Source: Spirochaetia bacterium
GTDB lineage: Bacteria > Spirochaetota > Spirochaetia > G963692905
DNA: 64,000 nt
Assembly: GCA_963692905.1 (NCBI GenBank)
Contig: OY843583.1
Coordinates: 1,407,883-1,471,882, forward strand
Reading direction: 5' to 3'
The notes under the pieces were generated by a model. It had not been told where the DNA came from, made no database searches, and was given only the letters and a program-made list of their open reading frames with translations. Made by a program: the position numbers and the translations under genes. Position 1 is the stretch's first letter. Each line of letters opens with the position of its first letter. Of this stretch, positions 23,533-25,123 are shown in pieces.

Positions 23533-23602
23533 ATGATATTACATAATCCAATTTCTTTCCTTTTAGGAGAGAAAGAGACAGCAAGCGCTCTTAAGACTTG
23601 CC

Positions 23603-23647
23603 AGAGAGAGAGAGAGAGAGAGAGAGAGAGAGAGAGAGAGAGAGAGA
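23603..23647 (+). repeat. (AG)22 dinucleotide tract inside the 5' coding extension
   Basis: 45 nt of uninterrupted AG. Would encode (Arg-Glu)n. Confidence 0.95.
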
Positions 23648-23743
23648 TTAAGCTCTCTTAATACTTGCCAGAGAGAGAACCACGTTTCCCCGCATTCCCC
23701 GCTTAAGGGGAGGGTACTGTGGGGCACCCTAGGGGCTGCCGGG

Positions 23744-25123
23744 GTGGTATTGGCGGCCCTGGTGGTATTGGTAGCCTGTCCGGCTACCCCTAGTCCCGGT
23801 CCGGGATTGGCCTCTGTCACAGAGGTGGCAGCGGCTCACGGGCACAGTTGCGCCCGGTTGGAGGGTGGCAGCCTCAAATGTTGGGGAGACAATGGCTTTG
23901 GCCAGCTAGGTCAGGGTCATACCCGCACCCTAGGCGATAGCACCACTGATGGGGTGGCTACTATCCCGGCTATTGATCTAGGCACTGGTCGAAGCGCCAC
24001 TCAGATAGTAGCCAATGGAGGTCAATATACAATTAGTGGAGTTAATACTGAAGTAGGTCACAGTTGCGCCCTCCTGGATAATGGGAGTGTCAAGTGTTGG
24101 GGAAATAACGCTTTTGGCCAGCTAGGGCTGGGTGATACCGATACTCGAGGCGATGAGTCCGGTGAGATGGGCAATAGCCTCCCAGCTATTGATCTAGGAA
24201 GCGGCCAAACTGCTACCCGGCTAGCTGCAAGTGGCAGTCACAGCTGCGCTCTCTTGGATAATGGGAATGTCAAGTGTTGGGGAAATAACGCTTTTGGCCA
24301 GCTAGGTCAGGGTCATACCCGCACCCTAGGCGATAGCACCACTGATGAAGTGGCTACTATCCCAGCTATTGATCTAGGAGGCGGCCGCACCGCCACCCAG
24401 ATAGCCACAGGTAGCCTTCACAGCTGCGCCCTCCTGAATAATGGGAGTGTCAAATGTTGGGGATGGAACACAGCTGGCCAGCTAGGTCAGGGTCATACCC
24501 GCACCCTAGGCGATAGCACCACTGATGAAGTGGCTACTATCCCAGCTATTGATCTAGGAGGCGGCCGCACCGCCACCCAGATAGCCACAGGTAGCCTTCA
24601 CAGCTGCGCCCTCCTGAATAATGGGAGTGTCAAATGTTGGGGAAATAACGGTTTTGGCCGGCTAGGTCTGGGCGATACCGATCATCGAGGCAATGAGCCC
24701 AATGAAATGGGCGATAGTCTCCCAGCTATTGATCTAGGAGGCGGCCGAACTGCTACCCAGATAGCTATAAGTGTCAGGCACAGCTGCGCCCTTTTGGATA
24801 ATGGGAGTGTCAAGTGTTGGGGATTTAACAATAGGGGCCAGCTAGGTCAGGGTCATAACCGTACCCTAGGCGATGGGCCCAATGAGATGGGCGATAATCT
24901 CCCAGCTATTGATCTAGGCACTGGCCGAACTGCTACCCAGATAGCTGCAGGTTCCACTCACAACTGCGCTCTCCTGGATAATCGGAGAGTCAAATGTTGG
25001 GGATGGAACGCAGGTGGCCAGTTAGGTCTGGGCGATACCAATGATCGAGGCGATGAGCCCGGCGATGAGCCCAATGAGATGGGCGATAATCTCCCCTTTG
25101 TTGATCTGCGGGCTTCCCGTTAG
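23744..25123 (+). CDS. RCC1-repeat (beta-propeller) surface lipoprotein. The likely true start is ATG 23533, which is out of frame through the AG tract.
   Basis: Lipobox LVAC. Seven or more RCC1 blades ([23 protein letters not shown]). Conserved in-frame residues upstream of the GTG (SPHSPLKGRVLWGTLGAAG). Confidence 0.8.
   Translation: MVLAALVVLVACPATPSPGPGLASVTEVAAAHGHSCARLEGGSLKCWGDNGFGQLGQGHTRTLGDSTTDGVATIPAIDLGTGRSATQIVANGGQYTISGVNTEVGHSCALLDNGSVKCWGNNAFGQLGLGDTDTRGDESGEMGNSLPAIDLGSGQTATRLAASGSHSCALLDNGNVKCWGNNAFGQLGQGHTRTLGDSTTDEVATIPAIDLGGGRTATQIATGSLHSCALLNNGSVKCWGWNTAGQLGQGHTRTLGDSTTDEVATIPAIDLGGGRTATQIATGSLHSCALLNNGSVKCWGNNGFGRLGLGDTDHRGNEPNEMGDSLPAIDLGGGRTATQIAISVRHSCALLDNGSVKCWGFNNRGQLGQGHNRTLGDGPNEMGDNLPAIDLGTGRTATQIAAGSTHNCALLDNRRVKCWGWNAGGQLGLGDTNDRGDEPGDEPNEMGDNLPFVDLRASR
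24295..24643 (+). repeat. Perfect tandem duplication (period 180 bp) of one RCC1 blade
   Basis: 24295-24463 is identical to 24475-24643. Confidence 0.95.

Follow-up and report, generated by a model that had tools for sequence, protein, structure and literature searches.

Within a 64,000-nucleotide stretch of the chromosome of a Spirochaetia bacterium (contig OY843583.1 of assembly GCA_963692905.1, positions 1,407,883 to 1,471,882; hereafter the window), a gene for an RCC1-repeat lipoprotein, which we call gene A, carries a tract of 22 AG units between its start codon and the codon for its lipobox cysteine. We propose, with a probability of roughly 0.6, that gene A is a simple-sequence contingency locus, switched ON and OFF by slipped-strand mispairing in this tract. 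The original prediction, drawn from the letters of this DNA, had described such a switch for gene A; the finding is broader than that, as gene B has an (AG)12 tract of its own, gene C is tract-free, and a complete cassette is common to them, so that a family is concerned and not one gene. The elements of gene A are as follows.

23382-23416, forward strand: promoter-like site, with -35 TTGCCA (23382-23387), a 17-nucleotide spacer and -10 TATACA/TATACT, a consensus match only
23517-23535, forward strand: ribosome-binding site (RBS) AAGGAGGA (23517-23524), 8 nucleotides upstream of the ATG (23533-23535)
23533-23661, forward strand: product of the OFF allele, 42 codons, MILHNPISFLLGEKETASALKTCQ(RE)7IKLS, stop TAA 23659-23661
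23567-23678, forward strand: duplicated 45-nucleotide unit, copies 23567-23611 and 23634-23678, 87% identical, both ending in ACTTGCC and then an AG run
23603-23647, forward strand: predicted hypermutable AG repeat, (AG)22 plus A
23649-23651 and 23659-23661, forward strand: TAA stops closing the wrong frames just past the tract (third frame and ATG frame, respectively)
23648-23743, forward strand: leader segment in the RCC1 frame, LSSLNTCQRENHVSPHSPLKGRVLWGTLGAAG, without a start codon of its own
23744-25123, forward strand: annotated open reading frame (ORF), GTG start, 459 amino acids, intact body; P0020 in the source annotation

The tract is perfect (Tandem Repeats Finder: period 2, 22.5 copies, 100% matches). 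Together with the (AG)12 of gene B at 46419-46442 it is by far the longest simple repeat in the window, and the two lie at the same site in paralogous leaders; the only other long run returned by a simple-repeat scan was a (GA)7 at 42354-42368. AG 12-mers with at most one mismatch number 31 in the window, against 0.3 expected from shuffles. In both A and B, the expanded tract belongs to the first of the two copies of the 45-nucleotide unit, being its AG run; the unit is single in the tract-less gene C and in the metagenomic homolog L081, with AG runs of only four. An AGAGAG/CTCTCT hairpin at the border of the gene A tract was no better than those of shuffles. On the minus strand, an ORF that spans the tract (23563-23820, LSLSLS...) was dismissed as the mirror image of the coding strand.

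Whichever frame is read, the tract encodes alternating Arg and Glu, and it is stop-free in all of them. The RCC1 frame lies at +1 relative to ATG 23533; it is open from 23567 and has its first ATG, GTG or TTG at the GTG 23744, from which translation would give MVLAALVVLVAC, that is, 11 uncharged residues and then the lipobox Cys. The wrong frames end 1 to 5 codons past the tract. When tract lengths were simulated, the ORF from the ATG to its stop had 524-532 amino acids at n=14, 17, 20, 23 and 26, and 34-46 amino acids otherwise. The sequenced allele (n=22) is thus OFF, and the ON state needs one unit more or two fewer. The predicted ON product at n=23 begins MILHNPISFLLGEKETASALKTCQ(RE)7RLSSLNTCQRENHVSPHSPLKGRVLWGTLGAAGVVLAALVVLVA, followed by the Cys at position 83. 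The sequence check bears out the original prediction in all these elements: the (AG)22 at 23603-23647, the RBS, the ATG at 23533 and the TAA at 23659, the RCC1 frame with its GTG and the 11 uncharged residues before the Cys, and the fusion of the ATG to the RCC1 body by +1 or -2 AG units.

We conclude from comparison of the paralogs that the leader appears normally to be translated from the canonical ATG. ATG 23533 is homologous to ATG 46336 of gene B, to ATG 27094 of gene C and to the N-terminal Met of P0055, P0005, P0009 and P0011. Most paralogs (at least eight, including P0055) read continuously from the ATG, which argues that the segment upstream of GTG 23744 is normally translated; measured by this norm of the family, A and B have shifted frames. 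The BLASTP alignment of P0055 to the body frame of gene A begins upstream of GTG 23744, at RENH..HSPLKGR.LWG.LGAAG, a stretch that in P0055 is in frame with its MKYLNISSFFL..., and directly past the in-frame tract of P0017, 44 residues match the same frame of gene A at 82% identity. The codon differences between A and B in the body frame of the leader (6 synonymous, 8 non-synonymous) compare with 3/9 and 2/11 in the other frames; they lean towards translation, in numbers too small to carry the point alone. The original prediction had held that the genes at 46.5 kb and 27.0 kb conserve the residues between the tract and the GTG, and that these residues are translated; alignment confirms the conservation, and the in-frame paralogs, the P0055 alignment and the P0017 tract support the translation. 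The geometry of an ON/OFF switch by slippage is exact, and its reading as such a switch stands as far as sequence can carry it.

The same region bears on the possibility of internal initiation, whereby the proteins would be made constitutively from GTG 23744 in A and from GTG 46508 or ATG 46538 in B, the ATG ORF would be a separate leader peptide, and the tract would at most modulate expression. The source annotation does use such starts (P0020, P0008), and four further members of the family, P0002, P0003, P0007 and P0053, are annotated from the same region, with truncated starts such as MLWGALGAAG. In gene C, moreover, the GTG of the body lies 4 nucleotides past the stop of a 14-codon ORF, a spacing that fits translational coupling. 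In gene A, the stop of the leader ORF lies 83 nucleotides upstream of GTG 23744, too far for coupling, and this counts against an internal start. So does the signal peptide itself, since a product begun at GTG 23744 would have just 11 residues ahead of the Cys and lack a charged n-region; a charged n-region exists in gene A only if the leader upstream of this GTG is translated. Nor are the positions of the candidate starts conserved (the site of GTG 46508 of B is GTA in A), no properly spaced RBS precedes them, and the leader upstream is conserved as protein, in frame with the ATG in eight paralogs. We consider internal initiation quite improbable. The source annotation of at least six family members (GTG 23744, ATG 46538 and others) is probably N-terminally truncated.

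A leader search that included the Glu-Arg run was swamped by low-complexity proteins (2 matches); with the run removed and a word-free search, the family appeared. Leader profile searches gave at least 17 lipoproteins plus one pseudogene in the 1.88-Mb genome. Of all the members recovered, every one but one lies on a single contig of 1,881,732 nucleotides, from which the window comes, given that P0008 is gene B and P0020 gene A. What they have in common is the promoter, the 5' untranslated region (5'UTR) and the start codon, along with a signal-peptide leader of unusual length. A continuous ORF from the ATG through the leader, with no long tract, is found in seven (P0001, P0004, P0005, P0009, P0011, P0055 and P0100). 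P0017 bears a tract and is in frame, reading MCNNIKHAPSLFL-ERERERERER-LSSLNTCQRENH..LVVLVAC, and LSSLNTCQRENH also follows the tract in gene A; its paralog P0007, more than 90% identical to it, is annotated only from MLGGTLGA. Ordinary short signal peptides are found in P0010, P0012 and the pseudogene. Outside the genome a single homolog was found, L081 (positions 1-1136; ENA ERZ22155170, contig ctg18859l). Its leader is that of the family and includes three short, in-frame (AG)4 runs, and a frameshift near 660-690 divides its body; a relative of the organism is thus present in that ENA sample.

An alignment of 12 family sequences reads M..I..PSFFL, then a gap of variable length rich in Arg, Glu and Lys, then (K/R)ERLSSLKTxQRExHxSSHSPLKGR, the hydrophobic core and VACPA. 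The AG tract falls exactly in the variable gap. A lipobox is present (...KGRVLWGTLGAAGVVLAALVVLVA-C, L-V-A-C), with C-P invariant in the 12 members, and we infer that the family proteins are surface lipoproteins. If the tracts switch, this would define a new lipoprotein family whose signal-peptide leader is exceptionally long, at 60-80 residues.

At the level of the sequence, gene A has what a contingency locus would be expected to have. Hypermutable dinucleotide repeats commonly have 5-6 units or more; the repeat here is perfect, long enough for hypermutability, and placed between the ATG and the lipobox, so that the number of units would alter expression. Tract lengths in the paralogs are 22 units (A), 12 (B) and about 15 (P0017, inferred from the protein). 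As these lengths differ beside a downstream flank that is 91% identical, the tract has changed length repeatedly. On this reading, tract length would change at a high rate and ATG 23533 would be used.

The mechanism that we favour would run as follows. Gene A would be transcribed from the promoter about 110 nucleotides upstream, and translation would start at ATG 23533 and have to cross a long, charged, length-tolerant n-region before reaching the hydrophobic core and the lipobox Cys. The tract sits in this n-region, where slipped-strand mispairing during replication would add or remove AG units. Every third length (n=20, 23, 26 and so on) would then yield an 82-residue signal peptide fused to a lipoprotein with seven RCC1 repeats, and the other two length classes would lead to termination 1 to 5 codons past the tract. 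The (AG)12 of gene B would act by the same mechanism and would also be OFF at present, and at least one tract-bearing member elsewhere, P0017, would be ON. A population of cells would thereby show varying subsets of the lipoprotein family.

Several observations weigh against this interpretation. The family was found only in this genome, represented by one assembly, and in one ENA metagenome contig. A predicted lipoprotein signal peptide of 80 residues with a 15-residue Arg/Glu run would be unusual. Many members of the family are truncated or fragmented, a sign that decay is active, and A and B are both OFF by the same single unit, as an under-count by the assembler would also give.

Decay deserves to be weighed first. 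Neutral expansion of the repeat might have inactivated the leader for good in a decaying family, leaving gene A a fixed pseudogene that is no longer expressed. The family does contain such a case:

9426-8940, minus strand: RCC1 lipoprotein pseudogene of the family, with the short signal peptide MLRDSICTLKVRLSALLATVVVGVISVAC

In this copy the frame is shifted at a G6 run (about 9234-9229) and interrupted by an in-frame TAA at about 9097-9095. Four paralogs, P0001-P0004, are only 62-120 amino acids long, the homolog in L081 is split in two, and in none of A, B and C does the canonical ATG share the frame of the body. Unlike the pseudogene, with its frameshift and nonsense codon, A and B keep intact bodies of 459 and 403 codons, and gene A matches an in-frame paralog over its whole length. 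From what is established on repeat instability, a frame lost in a tract of 22 dinucleotide units is easily regained, and the body is therefore not isolated from selection. Since the tract-bearing paralog P0017 is in frame as well, we regard fixed inactivation as unlikely. The pseudogene adjoins a gene for an adenine DNA methyltransferase (9656-11020) in a low-GC stretch.

If the assembly miscounted, the tract would really contain one more unit, or be in frame in some other way, and the OFF state would be an artefact of consensus calling. Each of A and B is exactly one AG unit short, and the single 1.88-Mb contig suggests a long-read assembly, of a kind that tends to shorten low-complexity runs. 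On the other hand, 47 ORFs of at least 150 amino acids in the window (among them rpoB, rpoC, dnaK, fusA and sucA) bear no trace of breakage by indels. A miscount would, in any case, alter the current state and not the mechanism, the tract still being a hypermutable repeat in frame. We hold this explanation to be rather improbable.

The shared offset would also be consistent with recoding, in which a -2 nucleotide slip of the ribosome on (AGA-GAG)n, or stutter of the RNA polymerase, would allow the OFF allele to make some full-length protein. A -2 shift does restore the body frame in both A and B, and the tRNAs in the P-site and A-site would re-pair perfectly at every codon pair of the tract. 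The agreement of two genes in their offset has a chance probability of about one half, however; no stimulatory structure was found past the tract, and no bacterial precedent was found for -2 shifting on dinucleotide repeats. Recoding thus strikes us as highly improbable.

The proposed slipped-strand switching gains in scope from the 5' region that gene A has in common with two other genes in the window.

46180-47719, forward strand: gene B, with a promoter-like site (46180-46209), ATG 46336, (AG)12 (46419-46442) and the stop of the ATG frame (46453-46455)
26006-27249, minus strand: gene C, with the cassette but no tract, only AAGAGAGAGG being present there
23443-23486 (forward strand), 46241-46284 and 27190-27147 (minus strand): most conserved block of the 5'UTR, 44 nucleotides, TGCGCTATGCGGAGGGAAGCTATGCTCCTCTCC..CTATAGT

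Alignment of the 5' regions shows a common module of about 430 nucleotides, consisting of the promoter-like site, the 5'UTR, the RBS, the ATG, the leader, the hydrophobic core and L-V-A-C-P. Behind it the bodies differ: according to Pfam, A has RCC1 repeats, B RTX calcium-binding repeats and C a propeller-like repeat. The promoter-like sites read TTGCCA-17-TATACA in A, TTGACA-18-TGnTATACT in B (46180-46209, 11 of 12 matches) and TTGCCA-17-TATACT in C (27249-27221).

The 5'UTR of the cassette, about 110 nucleotides long, contains the 44-nucleotide block, which is conserved more strongly than the coding leader. Within it lies a 28-nucleotide core that the three copies share without a difference (23448, 46246 and, on the minus strand, 27185), with 0 such identities expected, and the lipobox region is likewise identical at three sites in the window. 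A hairpin GGAGGGAAGC-UAU-GCUCCUCUCC is present in the minimum-energy folds of all three copies, and its 3' arm (GCUCCUCUCC) is complementary to the RBS. With z-scores of only -1.7 to -1.8, the stability of the hairpin does not differ significantly from that of shuffles, and the three copies in the window show no covariation. The block might serve to bind a regulator or to control translation. A scan of Rfam with the 5'UTR and leader gave nothing at the gathering threshold and only noise at E<1; the 28-nucleotide core had no match among 185,579 species genomes or in the JGI metagenomes, and a scan of the latter with the leader profile found no relative. Exact-protein look-ups for genes of the window and for P0001, P0002, P0005 and P0007 were likewise empty.

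Gene B resembles gene A closely. Its (AG)12 stands at the homologous site of the leader, and its ATG frame stops 4 codons past the tract. The +1 frame holds the RTX body (46508-47719, 403 codons), whose Cys is encoded at 46571-46573. Simulation places the ON state at n=10, 13 and 16, so that the sequenced allele is OFF for want of one unit. In the source annotation, gene B (P0008) begins at ATG 46538.

Gene C is built otherwise. Its ATG 27094 opens a 14-codon ORF (MKYLNISSFPFKRE) ending at TGA 27052-27050 (minus strand), and a body of 346 amino acids (MKERLSTRK...) begins at GTG 27046. The ATG and the body are apparently split by a 1-nucleotide difference in a T run, an extra T compared with B and P0005. 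This geometry could represent translational coupling or a rescued frameshift.

The cassettes of A and C form inverted repeats, 80-93% identical over about 430 nucleotides, that flank a 3.1-kb segment containing both bodies; the match covers 23621-23794 and 26888-27061 and extends to 23340-23830 and 27290-26860. Recombination between the two cassettes would exchange bodies between a tract-bearing and a tract-free leader. It is conceivable, if improbable, that variation has two layers, with independent AG-tract switches on several members and cassette recombination, the cassette then being more than a promoter in common, or that -2 slippage gives constitutive low-level expression. Were this true, inversion between A and C would give the RCC1 body to the tract-free, always-on leader of C and the body of C to the (AG)22 switch, and the two-layer system would amount to mycoplasma-like variable lipoproteins, evolved independently in a reduced-genome spirochete.

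By its body, gene A belongs with the RCC1-repeat proteins, which are seven-bladed propellers. Behind the hydrophobic region and the lipobox L-V-A-C (Cys codon 23777-23779), the ORF contains seven RCC1 repeats, in tandem and above the Pfam gathering score (RCC1_2, 1.1e-67, 7 stretches; RCC1-like domain, 2e-66, 225 bits against a cut-off of 150; RCC1, 1.5e-39). Gene A aligns end to end with its RCC1 paralog P0055, at 74% identity. At the DNA level, the body (24058-25077) consists of 180-nucleotide units that are 74-84% identical to the first, and 47-nucleotide segments of two units (24329-24375 and 24509-24555) are identical. This identity points to a probable recent duplication or intragenic conversion, and the number of RCC1 repeats may itself be variable.

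The surroundings are those of a housekeeping chromosome (dnaK, dnaJ, a crtI-like desaturase, miaA, dnaX, fusA, sucCD-sucA, tRNA-Trp, rpoBC). RpoB is at most 65% identical to that of any genome in the species collection, the best matches being Treponema and other Spirochaetia, and at the rpoB loci of 80 relatives there was no homolog of the leader and no AG or CT tract of at least 7 units. A CrtI-type phytoene desaturase (20356-21873; 567 bits to the model of the bifunctional desaturase) and the sucCD-sucA cluster (39570-45227) would be unusual for a small-genome relative of Treponema, and together may hint at an aerobic, pigmented lifestyle. The (GA)7 at 42354-42368 lies in the sucD-sucA spacer, directly 5' of the RBS of sucA (ATG 42381), and leaves the spacing between the RBS and the ATG unaffected.

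Other repeats are dispersed through the window. An 81-nucleotide repeat (GCCAGGCCGGGTGGCGTAAAAATTCTTATAGATAGTGA...) has four copies (11450-11530, 12556-12636, 13082-13162 and 25268-25348), the last of them just downstream of gene A, and may be a small mobile or regulatory element. Further repeats (11372-11496 / 12478-12602 and 11162-11228 / 11517-11583) lie around a transposase gene of the IS481 family (13263-14471, minus strand). A 48-nucleotide repeat, present at 23129-23176 and 62812-62859 with 94% identity, contains the palindrome GCTCCTCCAG(A/G)TATACTGGAGGAGC; one copy lies 200 nucleotides upstream of the promoter of gene A.

The proposed switch has parallels in Helicobacter pylori, Treponema pallidum, Neisseria and the mycoplasmas; the systems of H. 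pylori, T. pallidum and the mycoplasmas have no sequence relationship to the gene A family. The opa genes of Neisseria, a multigene family of surface proteins, carry CTCTT pentamer repeats in the region coding for the signal peptide, and the copies switch independently by frame. Their repeat differs from the present one in being a pentamer that encodes the hydrophobic core, and their products are outer-membrane proteins, not lipoproteins. The vlp, vsp, vsa and vpma systems of mycoplasmas are families of lipoproteins in which different bodies follow a highly conserved 5' cassette (promoter, 5'UTR and signal peptide) and expression is stochastic. There the switch is a poly-A tract in the promoter (vlp) or a site-specific inversion (vsp, vsa and vpma), not a coding dinucleotide repeat.

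If the tracts switch, the lipoprotein coat of a little-known spirochete lineage varies stochastically, each gene on its own. Such variation is normally a sign of long-term conflict with the immune system of a host, with phages or with grazers. Among spirochetes, a precedent is offered by the tpr genes of T. pallidum, an organism in which phase-variable repertoires are recognised (PMC11868660). In tprA, whether TprA is full-length or truncated depends on the number of CT units, 3 or 4, and possible phase variation has been proposed (PMC3656149). Unlike the tract of gene A, that of tprA has only 3-4 units, lies about 700 nucleotides into the gene and looks strain-fixed. Other tpr genes have poly-G tracts upstream, where the effect is on transcription, and the Tpr proteins are not related to those of the present family.

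By mechanism, the closest known system would be that of the Hop genes of H. pylori (oipA/hopH, hopZ, babA/babB and sabA). CT repeats are found there in the 5' coding region of hopZ, oipA and babA (PMC3960876). As in gene A, genes for surface proteins contain a dinucleotide repeat within their 5' coding region (CT being AG on the complementary strand), the frame sets the ON or OFF state through slipped-strand mispairing, and paralogs are switched independently (PMC3960876), features that in our case are proposed from the DNA. The Hop products, unlike those described here, are beta-barrel outer-membrane proteins and not lipoproteins, from a different phylum, and gene A has no homology to them, Pfam giving only RCC1 domains. 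The coding strand of the repeat is pyrimidine in H. pylori and purine in gene A, where it yields Arg and Glu in a charged n-region, and the tract of gene A is longer, at 22 units. The kind of switch is well known; the lineage is poorly known, and the gene family has not been described before. If the proposal is true, a dinucleotide-repeat switch would join the few mechanisms of phase variation in spirochetes, such as the poly-G and short CT tracts of T. pallidum.

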